From: an uncultured bacterium | Lineage (GTDB): Bacteria > UBA8481 | Direction: 5' to 3' | Assembly (NCBI GenBank): GCA_964499705.1 | Contig: CAZCME010000008.1 | Span: 62,001 to 126,000 of the forward strand | DNA length: 64,000 nt | Shown here: positions 6,061 through 61,119 of the stretch, piece by piece | How the letters are laid out: the number at the start of each line of letters is the position of its first letter | Numbering within the stretch: the first letter of the stretch is position 1 | Made by a program: the position numbers and the translations under genes | The notes under the pieces: generated by a model | Databases searched by the model: none | What the model was told of the DNA's origin: nothing | The model's input: only the letters and a program-made list of their open reading frames with translations

Positions 6061-6170
6061 GAGCCGAAACTTTATCAGAGGACCGCTTCCAGTGGGAGAA
6101 ATGGTACTGGAATGTGGATGGACAGGATGGAGCTTTGCCCTCACAATTAAAGGACCCATCCCGGGCCGGC

Positions 6171-31203: not shown

Positions 31204-32342
31204 AGAAAAACCGGATCGCTTCGACCATCGTAATCGGAGTGATAACCCTGATGTCGGCCTGCGGCAAGCCTGCTCCCGCGCCGGAAACACCTCCCGTATC
31301 CGTGGTTTCGATGACCGTGCATCCCACCGTACTCGTCATCGCCTACAAGGGTTCCGCCACGTTGGAGGCCGCCGACAAGGCGGATGTTTCCGCGGAGATC
31401 ACGGGCCGCGTCCGCGACCTGCTCGCGGATGAGGGCGACGAGGTTCGCGCGGGTGCGCTCCTGGCGCGGCTCGATCCATCCGTTCTCGCGTCCTCCGCGT
31501 CGGAAGCTTCCGCCCGACTGGCCGACGCGCAGATCGCGCTCGACGATGCCCGGCAGGACCGGGAGCGCATCGCGCGGCTTCGACGCGAGGGTGTCGCATC
31601 GCAGGAGGAAATGGACAAGGGCGCGATGCGCGTCAAGCGCGCGGAGGAGGGCGTCGCCGCGATTCGAGGATCCTCCAGCGCCGCGACCGCTCAGCTCGCC
31701 CGGGCCTCGATCGTGTCGCCCATTCCTGGCGTCGTGACGCGCCGATGGGTCGAGATCGGCGAAACCGCGTCCACCGGCAAGATGCTTTTTCGGATCGAGG
31801 ATCTCACGTCTCTGAAAGCCGTCCTGAACGTTCCCGAGCGCGAGGTCGGTACGATCGCGGCGGGCGACCGCGTCGAGATCACGGTCGACGGAGGAACCAT
31901 CACGGGACAGGTCACGTACGTATCCCCTTCCGCGGATCCGGTCGCGAGAACTGTCAAGATCGAAGCGCTCATTCCCAACGACACGGGCCGGGTCCGGTCC
32001 GGCGTCTTCGTCGAAGTCTCCGTCATCCGCGCCGTGCTCCCCAACATCATCGCCATTCCCAAGACGGCGCTTGTGTATCGTTCCAGCGGAGCGGCGGCCC
32101 TTTACGTCATCGAGAACGACGTGGTGAAGCGTCGCGAGGTGCAGCTCGGCGCTTCAACGGAAACGCTCGTGGAGATCCGGGAGGGACTTCGATCCGGTGA
32201 GACGATCGTGCCCGCCGACGTCTCGACGCTCTCTGACGGCGTGAAGGTCAGCGCGAAAACTTCGGCGAGCGGCGAGTCCTCGCCGTCGCCGGCCTCACTG
32301 CCCCATGAGTTGCCGGCCAGGGCCCCGTCCGACACTCCCTGA
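31200..32342 (+). CDS. RND efflux periplasmic adaptor (MFP), lipoprotein
   Basis: Lipobox SAC; lipoyl motifs GRVRDLLADEGDEV and SPIPGVV. Confidence 0.92.
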   Translation: MKKNRIASTIVIGVITLMSACGKPAPAPETPPVSVVSMTVHPTVLVIAYKGSATLEAADKADVSAEITGRVRDLLADEGDEVRAGALLARLDPSVLASSASEASARLADAQIALDDARQDRERIARLRREGVASQEEMDKGAMRVKRAEEGVAAIRGSSSAATAQLARASIVSPIPGVVTRRWVEIGETASTGKMLFRIEDLTSLKAVLNVPEREVGTIAAGDRVEITVDGGTITGQVTYVSPSADPVARTVKIEALIPNDTGRVRSGVFVEVSVIRAVLPNIIAIPKTALVYRSSGAAALYVIENDVVKRREVQLGASTETLVEIREGLRSGETIVPADVSTLSDGVKVSAKTSASGESSPSPASLPHELPARAPSDTP

Positions 32343-35300
32343 ATGGCTCTCTACGATACCTGCATCAGGCGGCCCGTCTTCGCGACGATGCTCACCGTTG
32401 CGCTCGTCGTTCTCGGGCTCTTCTCCTTCCTCGACCTCGGCCTCGATCTCTTCCCCAAGATCGATCTTCCGACGATCACGATCAACACGTCCTTCCCCGG
32501 CGCGGCGCCGGAAGAAGTCGAAGCGCAGATCACGAAGCCGATCGAGGAAGCGGTCAACACGATCTCCAACATCGACGAGCTCCGCTCCACCAGCTTCGAG
32601 GGATTTTCCCAGGTCATCGTCGTCTTCAAGCTCGACAAGAACGCCGACATCGCCTCGCAGGAAGTGCGCGACCGCATCGCGAGAGTTCAGGGACTCATGC
32701 CCGAGGGCGTGCAACCGCCCGTCGTCCAGAAATTCGATCCTGACGCAGCGCCCGTCGTTTCGATCGCGGTCGCTGGAGATCTGCCGCTGCGGACGATCAC
32801 GGAGCTCGCCCGGAAGCGGGTGAAGGAGCCGCTCGAATCCGTCAACGGCGTAGGCGCGGTAGAGATCACGGGCGGCCGCGAGCGCGAAATCCGGCTTGTC
32901 CTCGACGCCGACCGGCTCGCCGCGTTCAACGTCCCCGTCCAGGATGTGGTGTCGGCGTTGCGGCGGGAGAACGTCGAAATTCCGGGCGGCAAGGTGGAAC
33001 AGCGCGATCGCCAGCTCGTCCTGCGCACCGTCGGCCGGATCGTCAAGCCCGAGGAATTCGGAGGGATCGTCGTGGCGCGACGCGGCGAAGGCGCGACTCA
33101 ATCCGAAATCCGGGTGAGCGACATCGGGCGTGTGGAGGATTCCGAGGAGGAAGCCCGGAGCGCGGCTCGGTACGACGGAAGAACGTCCGTCATGGTAGTC
33201 GTGCGGAAGCAGTCGGGACAAAACACGGTGGAAGTGGTCAAGCGCATCCAGGAGCGACTGGAGGAACTCCGCCCGTCTCTTCCTCCGGGCTTGAACGCGG
33301 AGATCGTCCGCAACCAGGCCGACTTCATCATCAACTCGATCCACGAAGTGTACATCCATCTCATCCTGGGAGGACTCCTCGCTTCGCTCACGACGTATTT
33401 CTTCATGCGCGACTGGAGATCGACGCTCATCGCGGGCGTCGCAATACCGGTCTCCATCATCGCGACATTCACGCTGATGCGCGCGCTCGGCTTCACCCTG
33501 AACAACATGACGCTGCTGGGTCTCACCATCGCGGTCGGCATCGTCATCGACGACGCGCTCGTCGTCCTGGAGAACATTTTCCGCCACATCGACGAGGAGC
33601 ATCAGAAGCCGTTCGACGCGGCGCTGAAGGGCACGCGCGAGATCGCGCTCGCCGTCACGGCGACGACCTTCTCGCTCGTCGTCATCTTCCTCCCCATCGG
33701 CTTCATGGGCGGCATCGTCGGCCGGTTCCTCTCCTCCTTCGGTCTGACGGTCGCCTGCGCGATCATGGTCTCGCTCCTCGTCTCCTTCACCCTCACGCCC
33801 ATGCTCTGCGCACGCATGCTGCGCCGCTCGCCAAAGGGCTCCGCGCACGATTCGCACCTCAACATGGCGATCTCCAACGCCTACATGAAGATGCTCCGGT
33901 GGTCGATGGCTCACCGCGTGTGGGTCGTCGTCATCGCTCTTCTCGTCGTCGTTTCGACGATCCCCGCCGGCATGGCCGTCGGCAAGGACTTCTTCCCTCC
34001 CGACGACCAGGGCGAGTTCGAGATCGTCGTCTCCGGCCCGGAAGGCTGGTCGCTCGAACGCTCCCTGAAGCTCGTCGACGAGCTCGAAGCGCAAGTGCGC
34101 GCCTTCCCCGAGGTGGCGCACATTCTTTCGAGCGTGGGCGAGGGCGACGCGTCATCGCCGTCGGATATGAAGCTCTACGTCAGGATGACGCCCCTGGAGA
34201 AGAGAAAGATCACGCAATTCGAAGTGATGGCGATGGCCCGGCAGCTCCTGAAGGCCCATCCGGAGCTGCGCGGCGCGGTGCAGTATGTCGGAGCCATTTC
34301 CGGTGGCGGCTTCCGCCAGCAGATCATCAACCTGAACCTGCACGGCCCGGATCTCTCCCGCCTCGCCGAATTCACATCGAAGCTGATCGACGCGATGAAA
34401 CGGATTCCGGGACTTGTCGACATCGATTCCACGCTTAAGCTCGGCAAGCCGGAACTGCGAGTCCGGATCGACCGGATGCGCGCCGCCGATCTCGGCGTCT
34501 CCGTCCGCGACATCGCGGACGCGCTCCGATTTCTCGTCGGCGGAGATCTGAAGGTGACGGAATACCGGGAAGGCGACGAAGTGTACGACGTGAAGATCCG
34601 CGCGGAGGAGAAGAATCGGACTCTCGCGTCGGATATCGCCAACATCCGCGTGCCGTCACGATCGGGCGTCGTCGTGCCGCTCTCGTCCTTCGCGACGATC
34701 GAGGAAGCGACGGGACCGACACAGATCGACCGGCAGAACCGGCAGCGCCAGGTGACGCTCCTGGCCAACACCGCTCCAGGCGTTACACTGGGCGACGCCG
34801 TATCGAAGATCCAGGAGACGGCGCGCGGCATGGAACTTCCCCCCGGGTATTCCTACGAGTTCACCGGCCGCGCCAAGACGATGGCCGAATCGTTCCGCAA
34901 CTTCGCGCTGGCTTTCGCGCTCTCGTTCATCTTCATGTACATGATTCTCGCCGCGCAATTCGAGTCCTTCATCCATCCGATCACGATCATGCTCGCGCTG
35001 CCGCTCTGCATTCCCTTCGCCCTCATCTCCCTGATCGCGGGCGGCATGTCCCTCAATATCTACTCGATCCTCGGCCTGTTCATGCTCTTCGGCGTCGTGA
35101 AAAAGAACGGCATCCTCCAGATCGACTACACCAACACGCTCCGAGCCCGCGGCATGGAACGGCACGAGGCGATCCTCGAGGCCAACCGCGCGCGCATCCG
35201 GCCGATTCTCATGACGACGATCACGCTCGTGCTGGGAATGGTTCCCCTGGCTCTCGGCCGGGGCTCCGGTTCCGCCTCGCGCGCCACGATGGCGATCGCC

Positions 35301-35423
35301 ATCATCGGAGGACAGACGCTATCGCTTCTGATTTCACTGCTGGTGACTCCGGTGGCGTACTCGTACTTCGACGATTTCACGCAGTGGATGAAACGAAAGC
35401 TGGGCTGGCATGCGGAGGTGTAG
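32343..35423 (+). CDS. RND efflux permease (AcrB/MdtC family)
   Basis: IRRPVFA, GIVIDDALVVLENI, GVVKKNGIL, RIRPILMT. Confidence 0.95.
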   Translation: MALYDTCIRRPVFATMLTVALVVLGLFSFLDLGLDLFPKIDLPTITINTSFPGAAPEEVEAQITKPIEEAVNTISNIDELRSTSFEGFSQVIVVFKLDKNADIASQEVRDRIARVQGLMPEGVQPPVVQKFDPDAAPVVSIAVAGDLPLRTITELARKRVKEPLESVNGVGAVEITGGREREIRLVLDADRLAAFNVPVQDVVSALRRENVEIPGGKVEQRDRQLVLRTVGRIVKPEEFGGIVVARRGEGATQSEIRVSDIGRVEDSEEEARSAARYDGRTSVMVVVRKQSGQNTVEVVKRIQERLEELRPSLPPGLNAEIVRNQADFIINSIHEVYIHLILGGLLASLTTYFFMRDWRSTLIAGVAIPVSIIATFTLMRALGFTLNNMTLLGLTIAVGIVIDDALVVLENIFRHIDEEHQKPFDAALKGTREIALAVTATTFSLVVIFLPIGFMGGIVGRFLSSFGLTVACAIMVSLLVSFTLTPMLCARMLRRSPKGSAHDSHLNMAISNAYMKMLRWSMAHRVWVVVIALLVVVSTIPAGMAVGKDFFPPDDQGEFEIVVSGPEGWSLERSLKLVDELEAQVRAFPEVAHILSSVGEGDASSPSDMKLYVRMTPLEKRKITQFEVMAMARQLLKAHPELRGAVQYVGAISGGGFRQQIINLNLHGPDLSRLAEFTSKLIDAMKRIPGLVDIDSTLKLGKPELRVRIDRMRAADLGVSVRDIADALRFLVGGDLKVTEYREGDEVYDVKIRAEEKNRTLASDIANIRVPSRSGVVVPLSSFATIEEATGPTQIDRQNRQRQVTLLANTAPGVTLGDAVSKIQETARGMELPPGYSYEFTGRAKTMAESFRNFALAFALSFIFMYMILAAQFESFIHPITIMLALPLCIPFALISLIAGGMSLNIYSILGLFMLFGVVKKNGILQIDYTNTLRARGMERHEAILEANRARIRPILMTTITLVLGMVPLALGRGSGSASRATMAIAIIGGQTLSLLISLLVTPVAYSYFDDFTQWMKRKLGWHAEV

Positions 35424-45903: not shown

Positions 45904-45970
45904 TACGGGGACAGTATACTATTTTCCGTGAAGAATTTCACGGAAAATAGTATACTGTCCCCGTATTATC
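45899..45970. repeat. 72-bp perfect palindromic element, copy 2 (opposite orientation)
   Basis: 34-bp arms with loop GAAT (reverse complement of the copy 1 loop). Confidence 0.95.
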
Positions 45971-47102
45971 CCACTTCAAGAAGCCTGTTCTTCCAGGAAT
46001 AACGCTCCGCAAGGCCCAGTTGCGCTTCTCGCGATATCGGGTGCGCTCCACGGATGACCGCCTCGCAGGCCGCGTCGTATTCTTCGTAGGAATGCGCGAA
46101 GACAAGGGCTTCAGCCAGATACGATAATTCCGGCAGGTCGGTGGAGACAATCGGCACACCCGTCGCGAGGTATTCGAAGATCTTGATCGGCTGGAGATCG
46201 CGCGTCCACTCGTTCACCTTCCAGAGCATGAGGCAGAGATCGAAGCCCTTCTCGTAGAGAGGCACATCCGCGATGGGCTTGGGACCGAGATAGTGGACAT
46301 TGCGGCGCGTCTTCAGGCGACGCCATCGTTCCATGTCCAGGTCGTGCGGATATTCCGCTCCCACGAAGACAAGGTGCCAGTCCGGATGACCACGGCTCAG
46401 GCGGTCGATAAGCTCCAGGTCCGTCTTGCCGGCGATGGAACCCATGTGGCCGAGGCGGGGATGCGGAATCGAAGCGAGGTCCGGAGGTTCTGGAGCCACG
46501 CGGTCGAACGCCGCGCGGATCCGCTCGAAGTCGCAACCGTTCGGCCAGTATCGCGTCCGCGCCTGGATGCGGGAATGCGATTCATGCACGGAGCGACTGT
46601 AGGCGAGGCAGGTCGAGACATTCCTCAGCGTGTCCGCTTCCTCCTCCAGGATGATCCGCTTCTTCCGTCCCGTGCTCTGCGCCGCGAACCGATCGATGCA
46701 ATGGTACACGGAACGCTCCTCGCCTAACGAACCGGGAAGCAGATGGCTGTTGGGCGGATAGATCCAGAGGATGGGGTTCACGGGAGAGAATGGCGCGAGC
46801 CGAGCTCGCAGCCACGCGATAAGCCTCCTCTGCGAAACCGCGTCGGCCGCGCGGCTGTAGTACCGTCCCGGCGCCATGAGCGGAGGACGGAGCAGGGTGA
46901 CGCCTCCCGCCTCACGCGCCGCGGGAACGGTCCAGCGTTTGCGGAGATGGGGATATTTCAGCAGATGCTCGGGCCCGACCTGCTTTTCGACGTAGAAGAC
47001 GCGGTTCGACTTCGCAAGCTCCGTCATGATCTGCTGCCTGGAACCCCAGACCTCGTCCCAGTCGGTCGTGGAGATGCAGAGGATGTCGCGGTTCGAGAGC
47101 AT
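45966..47102 (-). CDS. GT-B glycosyltransferase (TuaH/GT4-like)
   Basis: YHCID, PNGCD, PIKIFEYLATGVPIVST. Confidence 0.85.
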   Translation of the reverse strand: MLSNRDILCISTTDWDEVWGSRQQIMTELAKSNRVFYVEKQVGPEHLLKYPHLRKRWTVPAAREAGGVTLLRPPLMAPGRYYSRAADAVSQRRLIAWLRARLAPFSPVNPILWIYPPNSHLLPGSLGEERSVYHCIDRFAAQSTGRKKRIILEEEADTLRNVSTCLAYSRSVHESHSRIQARTRYWPNGCDFERIRAAFDRVAPEPPDLASIPHPRLGHMGSIAGKTDLELIDRLSRGHPDWHLVFVGAEYPHDLDMERWRRLKTRRNVHYLGPKPIADVPLYEKGFDLCLMLWKVNEWTRDLQPIKIFEYLATGVPIVSTDLPELSYLAEALVFAHSYEEYDAACEAVIRGAHPISREAQLGLAERYSWKNRLLEVG

Positions 47103-47221: not shown

Positions 47222-49009
47222 TCAAGGAGCGATTTCACCACGTGCCGCGGGACGGAGTTCCACAGACGCAAGCGTCGCGACAGCGGCATGGGGGCGAGTC
47301 AGTTGGATGGATACGAAGGCGAGGATGACAAAGCCAATGATCGCCGCGGTCACTGAGGCGAACCGAATCGACCGGGATTCCCAACCGTTGCGGGCGATGA
47401 GCGGACTGGCGACGAGCGCGATCCCCGGAGCAAAGAGCCAGAGATTGCCCGAGGAAAAGGCGAGGGCGAAGAAGACCAAGCCAGCCGCAAATTCGGCGGC
47501 GGGCCACCATGATCGGGAAGTTCGCGTGCCCGCGTCGTTCGTGTTTCGAAAATCCGCGCGGCGCGTCGTCATGTAGGCGAAGACCGATCGAGCGTCGGCA
47601 AGCATCGTCGCGAGGAAGAGAAACTGCGATGCGACGACGTGCCGCATGAACCGGACCGGATGCCCGCGGAGCGCGATTCCGGCAGGAATCAGCGGAACGA
47701 CAATCGTCACCATCATGGCAAGAAAGAAATCCCAAGACCAGAAGATGTGGTAACGCGTCTGTAGAAGTAATTCAAGGGGCGGCTTGGAACCTGGAACGGG
47801 AGGGAGAAAGAACGATCCCGTATAGCGGAAGTGATCGAAGCTTGCGGGAAGAAAAGCCCCGATCGCAACGATAAAGACGAGCATCGCGGTCGACAGATAG
47901 TGGCTCGAAGCATTGATCAGAAGATCGACCTTCTCGTGCCAAGGAACGCCGTGCGCGCGAAGAAACGCCGGGCCGTGCTTGAAAAGCGCCTCAGTCGTTC
48001 CTCTGATCCACTTGTCCGTTCGCGTCCGCAATCTTTGATAGTCGGCTGGAAAGTCCTCGTAACAGATGACGTCGTCCGCATACGAACCGCGCCATCCCTT
48101 CGCACGGGCAAGCGCGGAATACGCGAGATCCTCCGTCGCAATCTCAGGAAATCCACCTACGTCGCGCCACGTGGAGGTTCGCATCAGCGCGCCATGTCCG
48201 TAAAACATCAGGAAACCCGATTCAGCACGCGCCGTGACGTTATACCTGTAATGAACACCGATCCCGACTCCGAGATCACGAGCGAATTGCTCCGGTTGTT
48301 CCTCATTCTGTTCCTGGCGCGCCTGAATGAATGCCAGGGATGCGTCTTCCTCCATTCTTGGGAGAAGTTCCGCAATGAAATTCAACGGAAGAATCGTATC
48401 GGCATCGGCCACGACGAAATACGGATATTCCGCATGGATCTGACGGAGCGCGTTGTTGAGGTTGCCCGCTTTGAATCCGACACAATTATCCCTGCGAACG
48501 ATGGAGACCTTGGCGGGGTCCCGCCCTGCCCACCGATTGATCCGATCCCTGTATTCCGGGAGAGTGCCGTCGTCGAGGATGAAGAGATGATAATTCGAGT
48601 ATTGAAGCGAAAGGCAGGAGTCCGCGCATTCCTCGCGGAAATCGTTTCGCGTCGCGTAAAGAATCGCAACGCGCGGTGATCGTTCCATAGCGAGCGTTTC
48701 ACGTGCGGTTCGAACAGACGTGCCATATTGCCGAACTCTCACCGACCATATAATGGCGCATAGTTGGTAGACGGCGTGAAGCCAGAAGAAGTTGAGACAT
48801 GCGAGAAAGAGCCAGACTGCGGCGGCTGAAAAGAAGCTCGGAGCGTATGGAACAAGCGCGGCGATACGCGGATCGAAATAGAGAACCATTCCCGTCCAGG
48901 CGACAATAACGGAAGAAAGCATTCCATCGCGGTCTTGATCAAGTTCGCGCTCCACTGATTTCCCCGAGACCGTGGCATCCATCGGTCTCGCAACACCCAT
49001 GGAAATCAC
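47222..49009 (-). CDS. Multi-TM GT2 glycosyltransferase (cellulose-synthase-like)
   Basis: ILDD, FKAGNLN, DAD, TEDL, RTDKW (QxxRW-like); N- and C-terminal TMs; GTGA overlap with the C39 gene. Confidence 0.85.
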   Translation of the reverse strand: MISMGVARPMDATVSGKSVERELDQDRDGMLSSVIVAWTGMVLYFDPRIAALVPYAPSFFSAAAVWLFLACLNFFWLHAVYQLCAIIWSVRVRQYGTSVRTARETLAMERSPRVAILYATRNDFREECADSCLSLQYSNYHLFILDDGTLPEYRDRINRWAGRDPAKVSIVRRDNCVGFKAGNLNNALRQIHAEYPYFVVADADTILPLNFIAELLPRMEEDASLAFIQARQEQNEEQPEQFARDLGVGIGVHYRYNVTARAESGFLMFYGHGALMRTSTWRDVGGFPEIATEDLAYSALARAKGWRGSYADDVICYEDFPADYQRLRTRTDKWIRGTTEALFKHGPAFLRAHGVPWHEKVDLLINASSHYLSTAMLVFIVAIGAFLPASFDHFRYTGSFFLPPVPGSKPPLELLLQTRYHIFWSWDFFLAMMVTIVVPLIPAGIALRGHPVRFMRHVVASQFLFLATMLADARSVFAYMTTRRADFRNTNDAGTRTSRSWWPAAEFAAGLVFFALAFSSGNLWLFAPGIALVASPLIARNGWESRSIRFASVTAAIIGFVILAFVSIQLTRPHAAVATLASVELRPAARGEIAP

Positions 49010-49566
49010 GATGCGCTTTGAGGCGCCTTTACCGGCGAGTACGGCTTGGGCCGCGGCCGATAAAACGGCGGCGGCGCAAGAACAAGGCACATACCTTCGC
49101 CATTCGTCACCGCGTCGTCAGGATCATCGAACCAGATCTTTCCCCACTCGTCCATCGGAACGAACCGATAACCGGGATCGCGATCCTTCACGACGAACCC
49201 GAGCGAGTGGGCATTCTTGACGTGAACGTAATGGTCGCCGTTCACAAACGCGATAACACCGTGACCTTCCTCCAGCTTCGCCCTGAGCTGATCCGCGCGA
49301 AGCCGCATCCCATCGCAGGTTATTCCATGAGATTCGACGACGCGCTTAAGCCCGATCATCGTCGTTCCCTCGGCATCCGTCCCGGCCAGCAATGCGACGG
49401 ATTCGGGCGAGGTTCTAATCCTGTATTCGGCCAGCAACGCAACCAACGCCTGAGGTCCGCAGTCGTTGGGGGCGGAAGGATTAATCGAAGCCCGGTTGCT
49501 GAAAAATAAATATAGCCCCACCGTCATGACTCCCACCAGGATGACCCAAGTAAGTATCCTCTTCAT
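49006..49566 (-). CDS. Stand-alone membrane-anchored C39-family cysteine peptidase
   Basis: N-terminal TM; NDCGPQAL (Cys), GTTMIGL, DHYV (His), D.DP; no ABC domains. Confidence 0.8.
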   Translation of the reverse strand: MKRILTWVILVGVMTVGLYLFFSNRASINPSAPNDCGPQALVALLAEYRIRTSPESVALLAGTDAEGTTMIGLKRVVESHGITCDGMRLRADQLRAKLEEGHGVIAFVNGDHYVHVKNAHSLGFVVKDRDPGYRFVPMDEWGKIWFDDPDDAVTNGEGMCLVLAPPPFYRPRPKPYSPVKAPQSAS

Positions 49567-49619
49567 AGCTCAGTCAGCCTCGATTCCAACCGCTCCTGCG
49601 GAGGAGAACGGGAGGTCAT

Positions 49620-49976
49620 TCATGAAGTTTTCTGCTCCTTGGTGTTTCGGCGACGCCAAGTTGAATCCGGATAGAAAAAGATATTTTTAACATAAGTGTA
49701 TCCGCGCTGAGAACTCAGGAAAACGGATATTCCCACTCCAATAATAAAAAATCCAATCGTGATATACGATACAACGCTACCGTTCTCGACTGAATACACC
49801 ATCATAAAGCTGGGGCCGTATGCAGCGACGCGCCCAACAACCCAAATAAGTGTGTCGAAAATGAGCTCGTTTTTCTGCCACGTCTTCCACGGATGATAGT
49901 AATAGTAGTGCAGAAGCAGGAGAAAATCGCAGAGAAAAATCATTACCATGGTCATCATAGAAGAGATACTAGCCAT
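49620..49976 (-). CDS. Low-GC membrane protein, candidate immunity protein
   Basis: Directly downstream of the RHS C-terminus; AT-rich; three hydrophobic segments. Confidence 0.6.
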   Translation of the reverse strand: MASISSMMTMVMIFLCDFLLLLHYYYYHPWKTWQKNELIFDTLIWVVGRVAAYGPSFMMVYSVENGSVVSYITIGFFIIGVGISVFLSSQRGYTYVKNIFFYPDSTWRRRNTKEQKTS

Positions 49977-49991
49977 AATATTTCGGTGTTT

Positions 49992-52900
49992 TCACGGGCA
50001 GCAGTTACCCGGCGGATTTACGGAGGGTTTGCCGGCACACGCGCTGAGGCAGTTTTGAACCGCGTTGTTAACATTATTTACCGCGAGAAGATAGCCTGCT
50101 GATGCTAATCCTGCGCAGAGTAGATAACCCCATCCTGTAACTGCCGCAGGACCACATGCTATGAGCTGTAAAGTATAGGCGGCGGATAGAGAGATCGCTG
50201 CGGTAGCTCCTGCTGCGTTGCAACAAGCCTGTGCCGTTTCCTTACACTTTATACTCGGACACTGATTTAAAGCGCTATTAGCTGCGGCAGTAATTACTGG
50301 AAAAACAACGCCTGGTGGCACTTTCCCCTCCGGGTCGGTTAAGTTTACGGGCCCGTTGAATACGTATGTGTATAAGTTGATTCCGCCGCGAATCCCGATC
50401 GGATCCACCTGCAGGAATCTCCCCAATCCCGCGCTGTAGAATCGGTTCCGGTAGTCGTAGATTGGATCGATCGGGCCGTCCTCTCGAGTCAGGCTTGATT
50501 CCAAGCGCCTTCCCGTGAAGAGCACCTCCGTCGAGGGGCGCCGATTCTTCGTTCGCCCTTCTGCGTCCAGCACCTTCACGGCGCCAAAGACGTCGTAGGC
50601 GTAACGCTCCTTCACCTTCCCGCGCTTGTCGGTCAGCGCTATGGTCGAGCCGAGATGATCGCGCAGGAGGAAGTGCTTCTCCCCCGACTCGCGTTGCGCC
50701 AGCACCTCGTCGATCAGGGGGCCGTTCACGTAGACTCGCTCGATATGCCTCGCGTGCCGCGCCTCGGCGAGCGCCTGCCAGCCGTCGTAGACGTACTGCG
50801 TCGTCCGCGAGCCGTACTCGCCTCCTGGCGCCTTCACCGTCCGCGTCAGGATCCGGTTCCCGATATCATACTGATAGCCGACGCGCATTCGCTCCTCATG
50901 CCCGTATCCGCGACCACGGCGATCCCGGTCGTGATCATCCTCGCCGTCATCGTCGCGGTCGTGGCCCTTGCCGATTCGCTTTAAGATCTCAACCAGGCGG
51001 TTCGCCGCGTCGTATCGATACGTCCTCGCGCCGTCCTTCACCAGGTTGCCGGTCTGGTCATAGGCGAGCGGCTTCGCATTCACCGTCGAATACTGGTTCA
51101 GATTGTTCGTCGCGTACGACGTGACGCCGACCGAGCCCGTTACAGTCGTTCTGTTTCCGGAAGGGTCGTAGTCGAAATTATTGTCCGGATGCGCATACCC
51201 TTCAGAATAGTCCGCCTCGTCGATCTGATGCTTGTCGTCGTACTTGTAGGCGTGCGTCCCCGCGCGATCCGTCCGTGATGTGATGTTGCCGGCAGCGTCA
51301 TAGGTGTATGATAAAGCCTCGATCGGCCCGGCCATATGACCCGTCGTGTTCGTATATGTCAGCGACGTCAATCGGCTTGCCGCGTCGAAACCGTAATCCG
51401 AACGGACGCCGTTCGGAAATAACATGGCCGTTCTACGGTTCGCCGCATCATATTCGAAGACGTACGCCGCGGAATCCATATCTACGATCTGTCCGACGCG
51501 ATTCATCGCATCGTAGTTCCATCGCACCTTGTCGCCGCCGGGATACTTGATCTTCGTCCGGTTCCCGACGGCGTCATATTCGTATCCAACCGCGAACCCG
51601 TTCGGCTGCACGACCTCGGTCGGGCGATGAAGCGCGTCATACGTGAATCGGTGCGTCCCGATGTTCTCGGTGATCCGTTCGATCCGGTTCGTGGCGGTGT
51701 ATGTCAGCCTCGCCGCACCCAGCGCGCCCGTCCGCTCGATCATCCGGTTCCCATCGTCGTACCGGAATGCGATTGCATCGCCCGCGCGATTCGTCCATGC
51801 CGTGACGTTCCCCGCCGCATCGAACGTCGATGCCTCGAAACTTCCGTCGGGATATGTCATCCTCGTCTCCCGGCCCACCGCATCGTGCTGGAATGTCGTC
51901 ACGTTCCCCTTTTCGTCCGTAAGCGAAATCATCCGCCCCGCCGCATCATACGCCGCGCGAACGATTCCGCCCTCCGCGTCCGCGGATGTCAACGGCTTGT
52001 CCCAGATATTATAGGTGAAGTGCGTCGAATTACCCAGAGGATCCATCAACTGCGTCAGTTTTCCCTTCCCGTCATACGCGAATGCCGTCACGTTTCCGAG
52101 CGGATCGATCACCGCGACCGGTTTGTCCTGGCTCTGACCGTTCCCGCCCCCTGAACAACCTCCGCACCCAACTCCTCCTCCTGCCCCTGGCGCGGCATAG
52201 ATCATCTGCGTCGTGTTCCCGAGAGGATCGACACGGGCGATCACCCGGTCGTTATCGTCAAAGTAGGTTTGGATGCGAGTCGAGTTCGGAAACTCAACTT
52301 CGACGATCCGGTTCGCCAAGTCATATGTCGATCTCATCGTATGCCCATTCGCGTCCGTCGACTCGATCGGCCTCTGGAGCGCATCATAGACGACAGTTGT
52401 CACATGACCCAGCGGATCGGTGATGGCTATGAGATTTCCCGCCGCATCATACCCGAAACGTGTCGTGCTCCCCTCGGCGTCCGTTTCCGCAATCGTCCGG
52501 CCTTCCGCGTCGAATTCGAAGGATTCCGCGTTGTCGTTCGCGTCGATTTTCCGGACAAGGTTTCCGCGCGCATCGAGCTCGTTCCGCATCACATGCCCGT
52601 TCGGATCCGTCCGGGTCTCCCAGACGTTGAAGTCCGCGTTAAAGGTGTACCGCGTCACGTGTCCCAAGGCGTCCGAGATCGATGACTGGTTCCCGTTCGC
52701 GTCATACTCGAACCGTGTGACGTTCCCGAGCGGATCCGTCCGGGTCAGCATTACGAACGTCGAAGTGTCGTAGGTATAGGACCAGATCTGTCCGTCAGGA
52801 TCGATCACCGCCGTCGGAAGGCCCGGGAACGTGTATTCGTATCGCCAAGTCTTGCCGTTCTCATCGGTCATGGTCGATGTGCCGAGGAGATTGTTCGAGG

Positions 52901-54026
52901 AGAGCGTCACCGTCCTGCCATCCGCCTTGATCTGCTGAACAACCTGATCGAGGTTGTTGTATACATATTGCGTCGTATATCCCATCGCATCCGTGATCCG
53001 GGTGATATTGAAGGGCGCGGCCGCCGACGTATAGCCATACACATTCACCCGCCCCATGGGATCGACGACGGCGGTCAGCCTTCGAGGACCATCATACTGA
53101 TAATTCCAGACCCGGCCCGTAAAGTCCGTGACTCGGATGAGCCGTCCCGATCCGTCATAGTCGAAAGAAAGTGAATGGCCGATATCGTCCATCATCGAAA
53201 CGATCCTCGATCCGGTTGTCGCGATCGAAAGCCGGTGGCCGTTCCGGTCCTCAATGCCCGCGAGCCGGCCGATGGCGCTGAATGCATGCTTCATTCCATA
53301 GGCTGAGGTCATTAGATAGCTGCCGTCCAACTCTTTCACGATTTCGATCTGACCGCCTTTCCACGGTCCGCGAAAAATCCCGCCGGCGTCGATGGCGGTA
53401 TCGGTGAGGAAATGGAGCGAGCCGCTTCCGTCCCGGACGACGCATACCGACTTGCCCGCCGGAGTATCGATCCTCTCCTGGAGATTCATGTCCAGCACAG
53501 TCACCCAGCCGACGCCGAGCACGCCTTCGAAATTGTCCTGGCTCGACCAGGAGCGGCGGAATTCGAGATTGAGGCTTGTCATCCGTCCCGGCCCCGGAAT
53601 CATCACGTCCGTCACAGGCAGGAAGAATTTGCCACCCGTGAATATGACGGGATCCTCCACGCACTGTTGACCACCCGGTCCAGGCGGCACCCCTCCGGAG
53701 CCGGGACCCGGAGGGCCGCCACAGGAACCGAAAAGCATGCAAACATTGGGATTCTGGGATGGCGGCGGCGGAGGTGGAGGCGGCTTCGGCGCCTGGCATG
53801 GCGGCAATGGATTATTCGTGCCGGGAGACGGCGGACTACCACACCCTTGAGGAGGGGGCGCGTTTCCCCCTTTGACATTCCCCATTTCGAACTCCGACAG
53901 CTTCTGGTCGTCCGTCTGAACCGACGAAGCGGCCGACCAGAATCCGAGTCCCCCTGCTTGCAAGACCAGACTCACGACGCAGAGGAAAGCGATTCTCCGC
54001 AACCAGAACCAGCGCGTCATCGTCAC
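49992..54026 (-). CDS. RHS/YD-repeat protein with double-glycine motif and Cys-rich C-terminal cargo
   Basis: DPV..G and LGVGW (DUF6531-like), many YD repeats, core RFYSAGLGRFLQVDPIG..NLYTY..PVNLTDPEG. Confidence 0.93.
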   Translation of the reverse strand: MTMTRWFWLRRIAFLCVVSLVLQAGGLGFWSAASSVQTDDQKLSEFEMGNVKGGNAPPPQGCGSPPSPGTNNPLPPCQAPKPPPPPPPPSQNPNVCMLFGSCGGPPGPGSGGVPPGPGGQQCVEDPVIFTGGKFFLPVTDVMIPGPGRMTSLNLEFRRSWSSQDNFEGVLGVGWVTVLDMNLQERIDTPAGKSVCVVRDGSGSLHFLTDTAIDAGGIFRGPWKGGQIEIVKELDGSYLMTSAYGMKHAFSAIGRLAGIEDRNGHRLSIATTGSRIVSMMDDIGHSLSFDYDGSGRLIRVTDFTGRVWNYQYDGPRRLTAVVDPMGRVNVYGYTSAAAPFNITRITDAMGYTTQYVYNNLDQVVQQIKADGRTVTLSSNNLLGTSTMTDENGKTWRYEYTFPGLPTAVIDPDGQIWSYTYDTSTFVMLTRTDPLGNVTRFEYDANGNQSSISDALGHVTRYTFNADFNVWETRTDPNGHVMRNELDARGNLVRKIDANDNAESFEFDAEGRTIAETDAEGSTTRFGYDAAGNLIAITDPLGHVTTVVYDALQRPIESTDANGHTMRSTYDLANRIVEVEFPNSTRIQTYFDDNDRVIARVDPLGNTTQMIYAAPGAGGGVGCGGCSGGGNGQSQDKPVAVIDPLGNVTAFAYDGKGKLTQLMDPLGNSTHFTYNIWDKPLTSADAEGGIVRAAYDAAGRMISLTDEKGNVTTFQHDAVGRETRMTYPDGSFEASTFDAAGNVTAWTNRAGDAIAFRYDDGNRMIERTGALGAARLTYTATNRIERITENIGTHRFTYDALHRPTEVVQPNGFAVGYEYDAVGNRTKIKYPGGDKVRWNYDAMNRVGQIVDMDSAAYVFEYDAANRRTAMLFPNGVRSDYGFDAASRLTSLTYTNTTGHMAGPIEALSYTYDAAGNITSRTDRAGTHAYKYDDKHQIDEADYSEGYAHPDNNFDYDPSGNRTTVTGSVGVTSYATNNLNQYSTVNAKPLAYDQTGNLVKDGARTYRYDAANRLVEILKRIGKGHDRDDDGEDDHDRDRRGRGYGHEERMRVGYQYDIGNRILTRTVKAPGGEYGSRTTQYVYDGWQALAEARHARHIERVYVNGPLIDEVLAQRESGEKHFLLRDHLGSTIALTDKRGKVKERYAYDVFGAVKVLDAEGRTKNRRPSTEVLFTGRRLESSLTREDGPIDPIYDYRNRFYSAGLGRFLQVDPIGIRGGINLYTYVFNGPVNLTDPEGKVPPGVVFPVITAAANSALNQCPSIKCKETAQACCNAAGATAAISLSAAYTLQLIACGPAAVTGWGYLLCAGLASAGYLLAVNNVNNAVQNCLSACAGKPSVNPPGNCCP

Positions 54027-55243
54027 AGCGTCGCCGACGGCGGGATTCTTCCGGCAAGTTTCCGCGCGATGTAATCGTTTACCGTCGCGATCGACTCGCG
54101 CGCTTCGACCGCGCAGTTGGCCGGCGCAAGATCATTCGCCGCGACAGCTTCAAACTCCCGCTTCGCGCCCGCGAGATCGCGGCGGTAGAAGAGAATTCTC
54201 CCCTTCCTCAAATGAGCCTCCGAAGCGTAGCCGTCATAGGCGGCAGCTTGATCCAGATACGCCACGGCGTCGTCGATGCGGCGCATTTCATAGAGAACAT
54301 CGGCCAGTTCCATAAGGCACTCCGGAACCATCTGACCCGCCTGCACCGCGCCGTTCCCGTACGACAGCGCCTCCTCGCGCGGGTTCGCGAGCCGGTAGTC
54401 ATTTCGAAAGCTCTGGATTACCTTTACCGGGTTGGAGTCCCGCTCGAAGCACTCCCGCGCCAGAGCGAAATTCTGCATCTGCACATGGAGATCACCAAGG
54501 CCGTTCCAGTCATTGATGCATCGAAAAAAATGTTCGGCAATCTTCCAATCGCCCTGTGACATGTAAGCATAACCGAGGCCACCGGCGTCATTGACCGAGC
54601 GAAAACACTCGATGGCCTTTGAAAAATCCCGCCGCGCCAACGCAACCAGGCCGAGACCGTGCTGATCATGCGCTTCCGCAAAAAGCGCCTCGGCGTCGTC
54701 ATACCGTTCCTCCGCCAATGCGACCAGAGCCAGGCCACTCTTGTCGCCCACTTGCTCAAAAGCGTGACGCGCGCCCGCGCAGTCTTTCTTCGCCAACGCC
54801 AGAAGCCCCAGCCCGGACCAATCATTCGCCCGTGTGAAAGCGTCGCGCGCGGATTTCTCGTCGCGCATGGCGAGAGCGACAAGTCCCAGCGCGCGATCAT
54901 CTTTCGCGGCCGCGGCCGTCGAAAGCGCGGAGCGGTAATTTCGCCGTTTCAGGTCACAGAGCGCCAATCCACTGGAGTCGTTTGCCGCACGAAAGCACCG
55001 TTCGGCGTCCTCGACCCGATGGAGCGCGAGATACGACATGCCCGCGCCGCAGTGATCGCCGATGGCGAGGTATCGTTCAAGCGCCGCCGCGTAGTCGCGC
55101 TGAGAAAAGGCGAGGTAAGCGGCTGTGCGAACGCCATCCTCGAATCCATACAGGGCTGACGAGAAGAGAATCACCGCGAAGGGGACGACCAACCGAAATC
55201 GGCATGTTTTGGAGTACCGCGTGAGAAAGGAGAAGCGGCTCAT
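54023..55243 (-). CDS. Secreted alpha-solenoid (TPR-like) protein with 26-aa repeats
   Basis: Signal-like N-terminus; about 8 repeats DxxGLGLvALxxRDyxxAxxxFxxxN; GTGA overlap with the RHS gene. Confidence 0.8.
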   Translation of the reverse strand: MSRFSFLTRYSKTCRFRLVVPFAVILFSSALYGFEDGVRTAAYLAFSQRDYAAALERYLAIGDHCGAGMSYLALHRVEDAERCFRAANDSSGLALCDLKRRNYRSALSTAAAAKDDRALGLVALAMRDEKSARDAFTRANDWSGLGLLALAKKDCAGARHAFEQVGDKSGLALVALAEERYDDAEALFAEAHDQHGLGLVALARRDFSKAIECFRSVNDAGGLGYAYMSQGDWKIAEHFFRCINDWNGLGDLHVQMQNFALARECFERDSNPVKVIQSFRNDYRLANPREEALSYGNGAVQAGQMVPECLMELADVLYEMRRIDDAVAYLDQAAAYDGYASEAHLRKGRILFYRRDLAGAKREFEAVAANDLAPANCAVEARESIATVNDYIARKLAGRIPPSATL

Positions 55244-55281: not shown

Positions 55282-55422
55282 ATGATACCCCCCCCCCGCA
55301 TTTTATCGGAAGAGTTCAAATGATTTGCGTCCCGTTCACTCATGGCTAAGCATAGAATATGTTCATATGTTATTAAGAATGTCAAGATATGAAATGAATA
55401 TTTATAAATATAATATTCTATG
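55282..55422 (-). promoter_or_regulatory. AT-rich regulatory region of the RHS operon, with G10 tract
   Basis: Minus-strand TATCAT (55282-55287) preceded by G10; TTGACA at 55380-55385; palindrome ATATTTATAAATAT 55398-55411. Confidence 0.5.
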
Positions 55423-58444: not shown

Positions 58445-60970
58445 TCAACCATTGGTCACTGCCTCCTTCAAGACTTGAACCAGCTCCGGCCCGCTGAACT
58501 GATGCGGATAGGCGGGCACCTCCGCTTCCTTCCATGGATCCTTGTACGCCTCCACGCTGCGCTGCATCTCCGCATCGAGCCGCGCGGCAATGCCGAGCGA
58601 ATCATCGATGAGGATGTTCTTCAGCGTGTCGATCCCGACTCTCTCGACGAAATCGTAGGTCCGCTCCAGGTATTTCCCGTGCTCGCGGTAGTACTGCATG
58701 AACCTGCCGACGAAGAGAAGAACCTGGTCGTGGCCCTTGACGGTCACGAGGAGATCGCCCTTGCGGACTTTCCCGCCGGCGGCGCCGCCGACGTAGATCT
58801 CCCACAGCCCGCCCTCTATCGCGACGGCTCCGATGTCCTTCACGTACGCCTCGGAGCAGTTGCGCGGGCAGCCGGCGGTCGCCAGCTTCATCTTGTGCGG
58901 CGACTCGATTCCCTGGAACCGGCGCTCGATTTCCTGTGCCATCGCGATTGCGTCTCCGAGCCCGTACCGGCAGAAATCGCTCCCGACACAGCTCTTGCAC
59001 GTCCGGAAGGCCTTCGTGTATGCGTGGCCGCTCGGTATGCCGAGCTCCTTCCACACGCCGGGAAGATCCTCCTTCCGGATCCCGAGGAGATCGATCCGCT
59101 GGCCGCCCGTGATCTTCACCATCCGGACGTTGTATTTCTCCGCGACGTCCGCGATCTTCCGCAGCTCCGCCGGCGAGGTCACGCCTCCGTAGATCCTCGG
59201 CACCACGGAGAATGTCCCGTCGTTCTGGATGTTGGCATGGACGCGATCATTGATGAATCTCGCGTCGCGCTCATCCTCGTACTCGTCATGCCAGATGGTC
59301 TTCAACAGGGACGCCAGTCCCACCTTGCTCGCCGGTTCCTCGCTTCCGTCGGCGAGCTCACGGAAGACGGCGCTGACGGACTTCAGCCCCCTCTGCCTGA
59401 TCTCCGCCACGAGCTGCGACTTCTCGAACGGCACGCCCGGAACGTAAAAGTGCTCGCTCGGGTCGTATCTCACTTCTCCCGCGTACGCCTCCACGAGCTG
59501 CGCGATCATCGTCTTGCACGATCCGCATCCCGCCCCCGCCTTCGTGCAGCTCCCGATCTTCGCGACGCTCGCGCAACCGTCCTTCTCGATCGCCTCGCGG
59601 ATCCTCCCCTTCGAGACTCCATTGCAGTTGCAGATCTGGGCGGTATCCGGGAGCTCCCGGATGTCGAAGAGCGACGAGACGTTCGTCGCTCCGAAGAGGA
59701 GATCGGTCGGCCGGTCGGGCACCTTCGATCCGGTCCTGTACATCTGCAGGAGCAGATCCGCCTCGTCGATGGAACCGAGGAGAATCGCGCCGGCGAGGCG
59801 CCCGTCGCGGATGATGAGCTTCTTGTACAAACCGCGTTTCGGCTCGCGATACACGATCACGTCGTCTTCGTCGCTCTTCGGGTTGGAATCCCCCATCGAA
59901 GCGAGCTCCACGCCCATCACCTTCAACTTCGTCCCGAGCTTCGATCCTTCATACCGCGACGCGGGATTGACGCCCGTCACGACGTCCGCCAGAGTCCGCG
60001 CCTGCTGCCAGATGGGTTCGACGAGCCCGTACAGCACTCCCCTGTGCTCCACGCATTCTCCGACGGAATAAATGTCCGGATCGCTCGTCCGCATCGCATC
60101 GTCGACGACGATCCCTTTCTTCACTTCCAAGCCCGAAGCGCCCGCGATCTCCGTGATCGGCCTGATGCCTGTGGAGACGACCACCATGTCCGTCTCCAGG
60201 CGCTGGCCGTCGCGAAATCTCACATGCGTCACGGGCCGCGCTTCCGTCGCATCACCGTCCGCACCGGCGATCGTCACCGTGATCCGATCGCAGAGGACGC
60301 GCACTCCCATGCCTTCCATCGTGCTCTTCAGAATCGAGCCGGATTCCGTGTCGAGCTGAAGGCCCATCAACTGCGGACCGGCCTCGATCACGGTCACCTC
60401 GACGCCGTGCGTCATGAGCCCGCGGGCGGCTTCGAGACCGAGGAGCCCGCCGCCGATCACGACGGCCTTGTGGCACTCGCGGGCGTAGTCGGCGATCCGC
60501 GAGCAATCATCGATCGTGCGGAAGAGAAAAGTGCCCGGCCGGCCGAATCCTTCGATCGGAGGAACGAACGGGCGCGATCCGGTCGCGATGATGACCACAT
60601 CGTACGGCTCCTCGATGCCTTCATCTCCCAAACCCTCATCGGAAGCCGCGTAGGCGATTGCTCCCTTGTCGAGCCGCTTACCGATGACGACCCGGCGGTC
60701 GCGATCGATCTTTACGGCCTTGACGCCCGCGTGCAGCGTGATGCCCTTCTCCACGTACCACGAAAGCGGATTCATGAAGATCTCGGTCGGCTCCTGCGTA
60801 CCGTTGAGGACATTGGACAGGAGAATGCGGTTATAGTTGCCATACGGCTCCGCGCCGAACATCGAGATGGAGAACATCCCGGGCGCGCGCTGGAGAATCT
60901 CCTCCACGACGCGCGCGCCGGCCATCCCGTTGCCGATGACAACCAGCCTCTTCTTCGCGATCGAGTTCAT
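58445..60970 (-). CDS. nirB: NAD(P)H nitrite reductase large subunit
   Basis: GNGMAG, YNRILLS, GGGLLGLEAA, CNCNGV/CGSC BFD, HANIQ, CVGSDFC and GCPRNC siroheme motifs. Confidence 0.95.
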   Translation of the reverse strand: MNSIAKKRLVVIGNGMAGARVVEEILQRAPGMFSISMFGAEPYGNYNRILLSNVLNGTQEPTEIFMNPLSWYVEKGITLHAGVKAVKIDRDRRVVIGKRLDKGAIAYAASDEGLGDEGIEEPYDVVIIATGSRPFVPPIEGFGRPGTFLFRTIDDCSRIADYARECHKAVVIGGGLLGLEAARGLMTHGVEVTVIEAGPQLMGLQLDTESGSILKSTMEGMGVRVLCDRITVTIAGADGDATEARPVTHVRFRDGQRLETDMVVVSTGIRPITEIAGASGLEVKKGIVVDDAMRTSDPDIYSVGECVEHRGVLYGLVEPIWQQARTLADVVTGVNPASRYEGSKLGTKLKVMGVELASMGDSNPKSDEDDVIVYREPKRGLYKKLIIRDGRLAGAILLGSIDEADLLLQMYRTGSKVPDRPTDLLFGATNVSSLFDIRELPDTAQICNCNGVSKGRIREAIEKDGCASVAKIGSCTKAGAGCGSCKTMIAQLVEAYAGEVRYDPSEHFYVPGVPFEKSQLVAEIRQRGLKSVSAVFRELADGSEEPASKVGLASLLKTIWHDEYEDERDARFINDRVHANIQNDGTFSVVPRIYGGVTSPAELRKIADVAEKYNVRMVKITGGQRIDLLGIRKEDLPGVWKELGIPSGHAYTKAFRTCKSCVGSDFCRYGLGDAIAMAQEIERRFQGIESPHKMKLATAGCPRNCSEAYVKDIGAVAIEGGLWEIYVGGAAGGKVRKGDLLVTVKGHDQVLLFVGRFMQYYREHGKYLERTYDFVERVGIDTLKNILIDDSLGIAARLDAEMQRSVEAYKDPWKEAEVPAYPHQFSGPELVQVLKEAVTNG

Positions 60971-60982
60971 GGCGAAGTGAAG

Positions 60983-60998
60983 AGCAATCCGCGTACCG
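60983..60998 (-). promoter_or_regulatory. sigma54 (-24/-12) promoter for nirBD
   Basis: CGGTACGCGGATTGCT, GG-N10-GC. Confidence 0.6.
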
Positions 60999-61119
60999 CC
61001 TTGAAACGAAGGAACTTCGGCTCTCATGCCGAAGAAAGCCCGATCAATTTTATTGAAAGCGACGATCAATTCTGACGCGGGATTTTTAAGCGCCGAACGT
61101 AACTTTCACCAACTGAACG

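Follow-up and report, generated by a model that had tools for sequence, protein, structure and literature searches.

The window analysed here is a stretch of 64,000 nucleotides from an uncultured bacterium of the UBA8481 lineage (contig CAZCME010000008.1, positions 62,001 to 126,000). According to the list of open reading frames (ORFs) and their translations, its minus strand carries five co-directional genes within positions 47222-55243, which encode a TPR protein, an RHS protein, a small membrane protein, a C39 peptidase, and a glycosyltransferase of family 2 (GT2). The locus is a mobile five-gene polymorphic-toxin module. The RHS protein bears a double-glycine (GG) leader-like motif, and we consider it probable that this protein is exported by the Sec pathway and then cut by the C39 peptidase at the GG site outside the cytoplasm. 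That C39 and the GG-bearing RHS are functionally linked is well supported by their joint occurrence in related loci. Comparison with these loci also indicates that the module corresponds to (TPR-)C39-GG-RHS fusion proteins, a widespread secreted family, split here into separate genes. The features of the locus are the following:

47222..49000, minus strand: multi-pass membrane GT2, 592 amino acids (aa), BcsA/OpgH-like (ORF 47222-49090; likely ATG at 49000)
49006..49566, minus strand: stand-alone C39 peptidase of 186 aa (PF03412 at residues 32-145, 56.7 bits, cut-off 22)
49620..49976, minus strand: putative immunity protein of 118 aa with two hydrophobic segments (GC 0.43; window 0.61)
49992..54026, minus strand: RHS polymorphic toxin, 1344 aa (RHS_repeat, E 2.3e-111, 17 stretches)
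49995..50318, minus strand: variable C-terminal toxin tip, 108 aa (10 Cys, 32 Gly+Ala, hydrophobic, GC 0.52)
50325..50597, minus strand: RHS repeat-associated core, residues 1144-1234 (TIGR03696, Rhs_assc_core, 55.3 bits, cut-off 32.5)
53424..53654, minus strand: DUF6531, RHS residues 125-201, start of the shell (Pfam, E 4.1e-11)
53865..53903, minus strand: double-glycine leader-like motif KLSEFEMGNVKGG, RHS residues 42-54 (read from the sequence)
54023..55243, minus strand: TPR-like protein, 406 aa, secreted or anchored (Pfam TPR_2, E 1e-18)
55356..55385, minus strand: promoter-like site TTGACA, 18 nt, CATATT, in an AT-rich 220-bp spacer 5' of the TPR gene

A preliminary description of this DNA, made from its letters, had read the genes as a co-directional operon of a 26-aa-repeat protein, RHS, a low-GC membrane gene, C39, and GT2, and they were found on the minus strand where it had placed them. 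The GTGA coupling that it reported is the overlap of the TPR stop with the GTG start of RHS at 54023-54026; an alternative in-frame ATG lies two codons later. The membrane gene does have low GC (0.43) and two hydrophobic segments, the motif KLSEFEMGNVKGG at 53865-53903 does stand behind a signal-like N-terminus, and the three families that it named for a search (Peptidase_C39, RHS, and DUF6531) were all matched by Pfam profiles.

The RHS protein consists of the signal-like N-terminus, the GG leader-like motif, a Cys/Pro-rich linker, DUF6531, the shell, the Rhs core, which ends in ...NLTDPEGK, and the variable C-terminal tip. A hydrophobic stretch at about residues 9-33, with Lys/Arg before it, precedes the motif. 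Counted back from G-G, the motif has L-12, E-8, M-7, V-4, G-2, and G-1, and the double-glycine leader consensus has the same spacing of residues relative to G-G; the C39 cut is predicted after G54. As in RHS/YD polymorphic toxins, RHS repeats are combined with a repeat-associated core, and a variable toxin is followed by a gene to which the role of cognate immunity is putatively assigned. The tip, which gave no Pfam match at E ≤ 1 and no usable ESM Atlas match, is probably membrane-active. The search with the 118-aa putative immunity protein in Pfam at E ≤ 1 gave chance-level matches only and no family.

Split and fused relatives of the module

A comparable module is located on the metagenome contig L031, which carries C39, GT2, TPR, and RHS genes together with a gene for a 181-aa signal-bearing protein, in a gene order unlike that of the window. 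It is adjoined by genes of a TrwC relaxase, a coupling protein, ParA, and an AbiE pair, and this gene content places the L031 module on a conjugative element. The level of identity between the window and L031 proteins is 44% for C39, 46% for GT2 (E 1e-176), 46% for TPR (E 1e-126), and 37% for the RHS shell (residues 7-1231), whereas neither the RHS tip nor the downstream gene shows any similarity at E < 10. A conserved shell with a differing tip and downstream gene is the signature of polymorphic toxins with exchangeable toxin/immunity cassettes. The RHS of L031 starts with a signal-like peptide, which is followed by QLTSAEMAAIKGG. In contig L007 of an Omnitrophota metagenome-assembled genome, RHS, truncated by the contig end, precedes a 232-aa gene, C39, and GT2. 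The slot of the 118-aa gene is occupied by unrelated genes after RHS in L031 and L007 and by an Imm50 gene in the Omnitrophota locus L068.

An exhaustive profile-free search with the C39 protein revealed 363 representatives at E ≤ 1e-3, and most of the best 150 of them are short stand-alone proteins. Among these 150, 14 longer matches were scanned, and six turned out to be (TPR-)C39-(DUF6531-)RHS fusions and one a classical ABC exporter; the suggestion of the preliminary description that the window holds a split form of fused TPR-C39-RHS proteins is thus upheld. The C39-RHS junction was found in 35 of the 135 Hydrogenedentota genomes; most of its 49 occurrences lie in open frames of 1000-2400 aa or more. 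In the genome to which the window belongs, which is 96% complete, PF03412 was matched at two places only, both of them RHS-linked. The second of these encodes a signal-like peptide, C39, VLSDFELLRIQGG, a Gly-rich linker, and DUF6531 before the contig end cuts the gene. Taken with L031 and L007, these cases answer the expectation that C39 would be linked to such RHS genes elsewhere.

The second RHS gene of this genome (G000) is broken by contig ends and lies at C28:46479-47851 and C35:1-7400 (loci L096 and L095). Contig C35 starts with its probable C-terminal end, the joining of the two contigs being assumed; a 192-aa gene, an orphan RHS-core fragment, a GspD-like secretin, and a pseudopilin-like gene come after it. 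Orphan RHS C-terminal cassettes, one of them with Ntox16, and a DUF6714 gene were also noted 3' of a fused Hydrogenedentota RHS (L009:15204-19567); they are the usual array of displaced toxin/immunity modules. On metagenome contigs L033-L037, an anchored C39 protein of 264-439 aa comes after RHS fragments, whose N-termini were not recovered, and a 204-aa membrane protein; in L035, genes of a multihaem cytochrome and of cytochrome c assembly come after the C39 protein.

The GG motif was searched for with the strict pattern [LIVMF]x4[LMIVF]x2[IVLAMF]xG[GAS]. It occurs at the expected place, behind the signal or approximately 10-20 residues past C39, in nine of the 12 C39-linked RHS proteins, against which shuffled sequences gave about five matches in all 19,871 residues. 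At 30 Hydrogenedentota C39-RHS junctions, the motif was strict in 22 cases and two-of-three in six; it was missing in two, one of which is at a contig end. Its start lies mostly 10-12 residues beyond profile position 160 of C39. As only eight of the 331 control windows from the same frames were strict (55 were two-of-three), the motif is more than chance. The junction consensus is L-x2-[EA]-x-L-x2-[ALV]-[RK]-G-G, and its most conserved part is G-G itself: position -2 is G in all 28 cases, and position -1 is G or A. Cys-rich linkers come after the GG site in the fused junctions.

In the split systems, the motif is carried by RHS and not by C39, both in the window and in L031 (2/2), and stand-alone C39 proteins have no such motif past their last strand. 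Conservation of the motif in RHS homologues, which the preliminary description had made decisive for its proposal, was thus found in L031, the only other split RHS with a readable N-terminus, and at a fixed offset in the fused relatives. In Omnitrophota, where C39 was sought in the surroundings of each locus by profile, four loci consist of GT2 followed by a fused TPR-C39-RHS gene. Three of them have the motif FAYDEL[AV]SIKGG, and an A-G variant can be recognised by eye in L071. Four other loci (L062, L063, L068, and L070) have GT2-(TPR-)RHS without a linked C39, and C39 is ruled out as a constant companion of GT2-TPR-RHS. The strict motif is missing from all four of these RHS proteins (0/4 in the N-terminal 110-120 residues), which begin with plain signal-like peptides.

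A second GG-like motif occurs soon after the signal peptide in some fused proteins, besides the one past C39: LPEAMMELMHGG at residues 88-99 of L011/L012 and LIPEETLEVYRGG at about residues 52-64 of P0034. There may be two cleavage sites in these proteins.

Proposed processing and its alternatives

The C39 protein of the window has Cys36, His112, and Asp128. Across 61 relatives, the catalytic columns hold Cys in 59, His in 61, and Asp in 58; in the 44 rows of RHS-linked C39 (43 domains and one reference row), Cys and His are kept in all and Asp in 41. When the family profile was compared with solved peptidase domains, it matched PCAT1 at 1e-31, LahT at 1e-28, ComA at 1e-25, and the C39-like domain of HlyB at 5e-9. 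Catalysis by C39 is plausible because the Cys/His/Asp residues are kept and the profile matches PCAT1, LahT, and ComA. A role of C39 as a toxin domain of the Tox-PL-C39 type is ruled out, because C39 occurs here either N-terminally or as an anchored stand-alone protein, and not at the RHS C-terminus.

We propose the following scheme. The RHS precursor would be exported by Sec via its N-terminal hydrophobic segment, and the membrane-anchored C39 outside the cytoplasm would bind the leader-like helix (L-12, E-8, M-7, and V-4) and cut after Gly53-Gly54. If signal peptidase cut first, C39 would remove a short propeptide; alternatively, it would free the RHS cage from a membrane anchor. The TPR protein would probably act as a periplasmic scaffold or chaperone, and the RHS shell would enclose the 108-residue Cys-rich hydrophobic tip. 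The 118-aa small membrane protein would be the cognate immunity protein, and the conserved GT2 would take part in the system. Passage of the outer membrane would take place without a type VI secretion system (T6SS), possibly via a secretin like that of type II secretion systems (T2SSs).

Several observations weigh against this scheme. The oxyanion-hole Gln is not kept: in the C39 of the window, Ser occupies the column that holds Gln in 40 of the 61 relatives, and Gln is found in just three of the 44 RHS-linked rows. The catalytic Cys is lost in two of the 61 relatives, both of them stand-alone C39 proteins. The hydrophobic stretch of RHS, at least approximately 20 residues long, could be an uncleaved anchor. 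C39 is dispensable in related GT2-TPR-RHS loci and so appears to be an add-on and not a core need. The genomes of L062, L063, L068, and L070, as well as genome G130, match C39 elsewhere, nearly always in giant open frames, one of the matches being a 365-aa frame in G328; C39 might conceivably act in trans on the RHS proteins of the C39-less loci, yet these offer no site. The ORFs of related loci were called by a simple in-house script, and locus counts overstate independence because many loci are kin or near-duplicates (L127/L128, L122/L125, and L064-L066). Cleavage, topology, and secretion are comparative readings throughout.

Docking supports the scheme weakly. C39 residues 24-170 were docked with RHS residues 30-72 alongside three controls. 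The score was 0.45 versus 0.00 for the best control, contacts agreed to at least 81% between runs, and the predicted local distance difference test (pLDDT) value of the partner was at least 52. The pass mark is reached by 116 of the 157 solved complexes and two of the 215 mismatches; passes at 0.60 or below comprise 18 of the 157 and both mismatches, and the pass obtained here is a weak one. Similar complexes of this family have already been solved, so the pass may simply reproduce known structures.

Part of these observations would suit a C39-like receptor or chaperone that binds the leader-like helix of RHS and does not cut it, in the manner of the degenerate C39-like domains by which HlyB-type exporters hold their substrates. 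The scarcity of the oxyanion Gln in RHS-linked rows (3/44 versus 40/61 in the wider alignment), the loss of Cys in two stand-alone relatives, and the match of the family profile to the HlyB domain (E 5e-9) would agree with such a role. However, the retention of Cys and His in every one of the 44 rows and of Asp in 41 would be unexpected without catalysis, the true GG peptidases are matched far better (1e-31), and the strongest conservation of the motif falls on G-G (G at -2 in 28/28, G or A at -1), which fits a scissile site. We therefore regard a non-cutting C39 as unlikely.

As for the cell location, the C39 protein has a single N-terminal hydrophobic segment at residues 3-24 with Lys/Arg ahead of it, and the fused C39-RHS forms begin with signal-like peptides. 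Lys/Arg before the anchors, signal-like starts, and Cys-rich linkers all point to a C39 domain that is predicted to face the outside of the cytoplasm. Processing on the cytoplasmic side, coupled to a transporter as in peptidase-containing ATP-binding cassette (ABC) transporters (PCATs), would require an inward C39, no Sec signal, and GT2 in place of the ABC transporter as a platform or conduit. C39 and GT2 are indeed immediate neighbours in all three split loci, with stop and start at most 5 nt apart or overlapping, and all characterised C39/GG systems known to us, the PCATs, act on the cytoplasmic side. But the charges around the anchor favour an outward C39, the fused C39 sits behind a signal-like peptide and TPR in one chain with RHS, and the linkers are Cys-rich. 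Moreover, the fused-form Hydrogenedentota genome G042 has no matches to this GT2 subfamily, and a 140-kDa protein would hardly fit through a glycan channel. Such an arrangement appears quite improbable. The C39 protein is neither fused to an ABC exporter nor accompanied by one: no ABC domain was detected in the module or its flanks, and no ABC-fused C39 in the 96%-complete genome.

Export of RHS appears to be independent of T6SS, because neither TssC/VipB (PF05943) nor PAAR (PF05488) was matched in the 96%-complete genome; the absence of PAAR, remarked earlier for the window, thereby extends to the whole assembly. The Pfam scan showed no PAAR or VgrG-linked domain at the N-terminus of the RHS protein, so that the features of a T6SS Rhs effector, such an N-terminus and a T6SS, are both lacking. 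A connection of RHS export with T2SS-like machinery is a lead. The genome has six secretin matches, and a GspD-like secretin and a pseudopilin-like gene are located 2.5 kb past the end of its second RHS. In L014, secretin, GspF, and pseudopilin-like genes adjoin the C39 gene. The window module itself has no T2SS-like genes.

In genome G130 (L061:886-11389), a complete T2SS-like operon of secretin GspD, GspF, GspG, GspK-like, PilN-like, and GspE genes overlaps the GT2 start by a few bases; a TPR gene comes after GT2, and the contig stops before any RHS. At L004:1276-2286 (genome G032) and L014:190-4246, a stand-alone anchored C39 adjoins small proteins with a signal-like peptide and a GG motif. 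One of them, 96 aa long, has ...LSIESMQINYGG followed by a hydrophobic Gly/Ala-rich peptide, and another, 146 aa long, has ...VLSLDQMCSIWGG followed by a Cys-rich part. Possibly, the logic of a signal and a GG propeptide also serves bacteriocin-like peptides in L004 and L014.

Accessory genes and genomic surroundings

The likely ATG of GT2 at 49000 comes right behind the C39 stop. Among solved structures, BcsA is the nearest (5e-9), and among NCBIfam models MdoH/OpgH; however, the score against the MdoH equivalog model is 66.6 bits with a cut-off of 328. As this is far under the cut-off, GT2 is assigned to the processive-synthase type and is not an OpgH orthologue. Its sequence contains the motifs DDG, DAD, and TED and a ...DKWIRG stretch. 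The GT2 adjoining C39 in L007 is 45% identical to it (E 2e-168), close to the value for L031. The family is widespread under generic names only, with 249 clusters at E ≤ 1e-30 (8000 candidates scored). In Omnitrophota, the subfamily occurs in 13 of the 401 genomes at 18 places, and it adjoins TPR/RHS in most of these loci. GT2 is a conserved core partner in the module. As a constant companion of C39-RHS it is ruled out, since genomes G042 and G043 have no GT2 of this subfamily.

Omnitrophota copies of GT2 without RHS were also noted (L069, L073, L074, L075, and a second copy in L066:16633-18300). These clusters encode several signal-bearing proteins of approximately 250-470 aa, which recur across genomes. 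GT2 may serve more than one type of secreted cargo.

The idea that C39 and GT2 belong to an exopolysaccharide or envelope pathway and are chance neighbours of RHS, with a coincidental GG-like motif, could draw on these RHS-free copies, on the wide spread of GT2, and on the resemblance of GT2 with a TPR protein to synthase-dependent polysaccharide export, but it is very improbable and already largely refuted by the comparison, since the motif lies at a fixed offset past C39 in 28 of 30 fused junctions (against 8 strict and 55 two-of-three in 331 controls) and occurs exactly where C39 occurs, the gene set is retained in shuffled order on a conjugative element, and the five genes were inserted as a single block.

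The TPR protein contains five 26-residue repeats starting at 143, 169, 195, 221, and 247, the spacing being exactly 26, and a signal-like N-terminus with Lys/Arg before the hydrophobic anchor. Besides its similarity to the L031 protein, it is 46-48% identical to Omnitrophota TPR proteins adjoining GT2 and RHS. It is a conserved partner of RHS.

A wider reading would join all this into one claim: an undescribed RHS route in little-studied diderm phyla, namely Omnitrophota, Hydrogenedentota, and the lineage of the window. It would comprise a prepro RHS with a Sec signal and a GG propeptide of approximately 20 residues, a periplasmic C39 uncoupled from ABC transport, a TPR scaffold with a cellulose-synthase-like GT2, and exit by a T2SS-like secretin, the same logic holding for the L004 and L014 peptides. 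As a whole, this joint claim is tentative and somewhat doubtful.

The module is flanked by housekeeping genes: upp, rpiB, a SurA-like gene, and nirB on one side, and a glycosyltransferase of family 1 (GT1), NUDIX, LolA, and aroB on the other. In the family relative G003, GT1 (65% identical) and upp (82%) are only 268 bp apart, whereas the window has the 8-kb module between them. Since the two genes are adjacent in G003, the five genes are one block, inserted as an island. GT1 (45966-47102) is ruled out as a sixth gene of the module, as it is kept beside upp in G003 without the module. The search for direct and inverted repeats around the island found just RHS-internal repeats and short, probably chance pairs, with no att-like sites, and no integrase was found. 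The C39 protein is absent from the three family relatives (0/3) and the one order relative (0/1) searched, and outside the genome of the window it was found in one of 40 relatives; the lineage is thinly sampled, and relatives beyond the order share the domain level only.

The spacer 5' of the TPR gene has a GC of 0.41. The promoter-like site in it (55356..55385) has 10 of 12 matches, but the region has two such sites versus 4.3 expected, so the site is suggestive by position alone.

Elsewhere in the window, three loci can be noted. A subtilase (Peptidase_S8) of 1040 aa with a PKD-like domain is encoded at 6114-9236 and is unrelated to the module. An RND efflux operon at 29203-35423 encodes an outer-membrane factor with a LysM domain, an HlyD-type adaptor, and an AcrB-type pump. 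At 58445-61075, long frames of 874 aa on the minus strand and 866 aa on the plus strand overlap almost completely; families (NirB-like nitrite reductase) were matched on the minus strand only, and the plus-strand frame is probably an artefact of high GC.

Relation to known systems and significance

The pairing of C39 with a GG-bearing RHS joins two known kinds of proteins, polymorphic RHS toxins and C39 leader peptidases. With the PCATs (PCAT1, ComA, and LahT), the module shares the C39 fold family and the Cys/His/Asp residues, and with their substrates the hydrophobic residues at -12, -7, and -4 and G-G at -2/-1. Unlike them, its C39 has no fused or nearby ABC transporter and lacks the oxyanion Gln, and the single anchor is predicted to put the peptidase outside the cytoplasm. 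Instead of a small leader-first peptide, its substrate would be an RHS protein of 1344 aa that carries a Sec-type signal.

T6SS Rhs effectors and Tc (TcB/TcC) cocoons also have an RHS shell and a repeat-associated core around a variable C-terminal toxin. Unlike the former, the RHS of the window has a signal-like N-terminus with no PAAR/VgrG-binding domain, in a genome without PAAR and TssC; unlike the latter, the module has no Tc or SpvB domains by the Pfam scan. Synthase-dependent polysaccharide systems (BcsA/BcsC, PgaC/PgaA, and OpgH) likewise combine a multi-pass GT2 with a cytoplasmic catalytic domain and a TPR protein encoded alongside. They differ in that the partner here is a toxin, the MdoH score is far below its threshold, and the module shows no beta-barrel porin domain.

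The Sec-dependent ('T2SS' class) RHS toxins of Zhang et al. (2012, PMC3482391) resemble the module in the signal peptide, RHS repeats, variable toxin, and downstream immunity. That paper names TPR among the accessory repeats and describes in-built peptidases that release the toxin. The processing proteases that its Table 1 gives for the Sec-dependent class are caspase, HINT, MCF1-SHE, subtilisin, and ZU5, and C39 is not listed there; in the accessible text, C39 occurs solely as a C-terminal toxin domain (Tox-PL-C39). The C39 of the window, in contrast, belongs to a family of N-terminal or stand-alone domains that go together with a GG site ahead of the cage, and a conserved GT2 partner is not described in the accessible part of the paper. 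C39 domains near signal peptides, with a guess at self-cleavage, are mentioned for giant Omnitrophota genes in a preprint (10.1101/2023.11.21.568195). A literature search that covered subscription journals thinly and did not extend to supplements found no description of C39 or double-glycine sites paired with RHS/YD-repeat proteins.

Given that the fused form is present in 35 of 135 Hydrogenedentota genomes, C39-RHS is a major, undescribed toxin architecture and no curiosity. Double-glycine leader processing has classically been tied to the cytoplasmic face of ABC exporters. The system described here suggests that GG processing can run outside the cell membrane without the usual ABC transporter, and the predicted cut after Gly54 gives a directly testable site. 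If the proposed cleavage is true, C39 would act on a giant toxin exported by Sec, which would extend the range known for this peptidase family, and polymorphic toxin systems would gain a new type of releasing peptidase. Such processing also bears on how RHS toxins that have no T6SS, Tc, or type VII secretion system partners may be matured and released in diderm bacteria.

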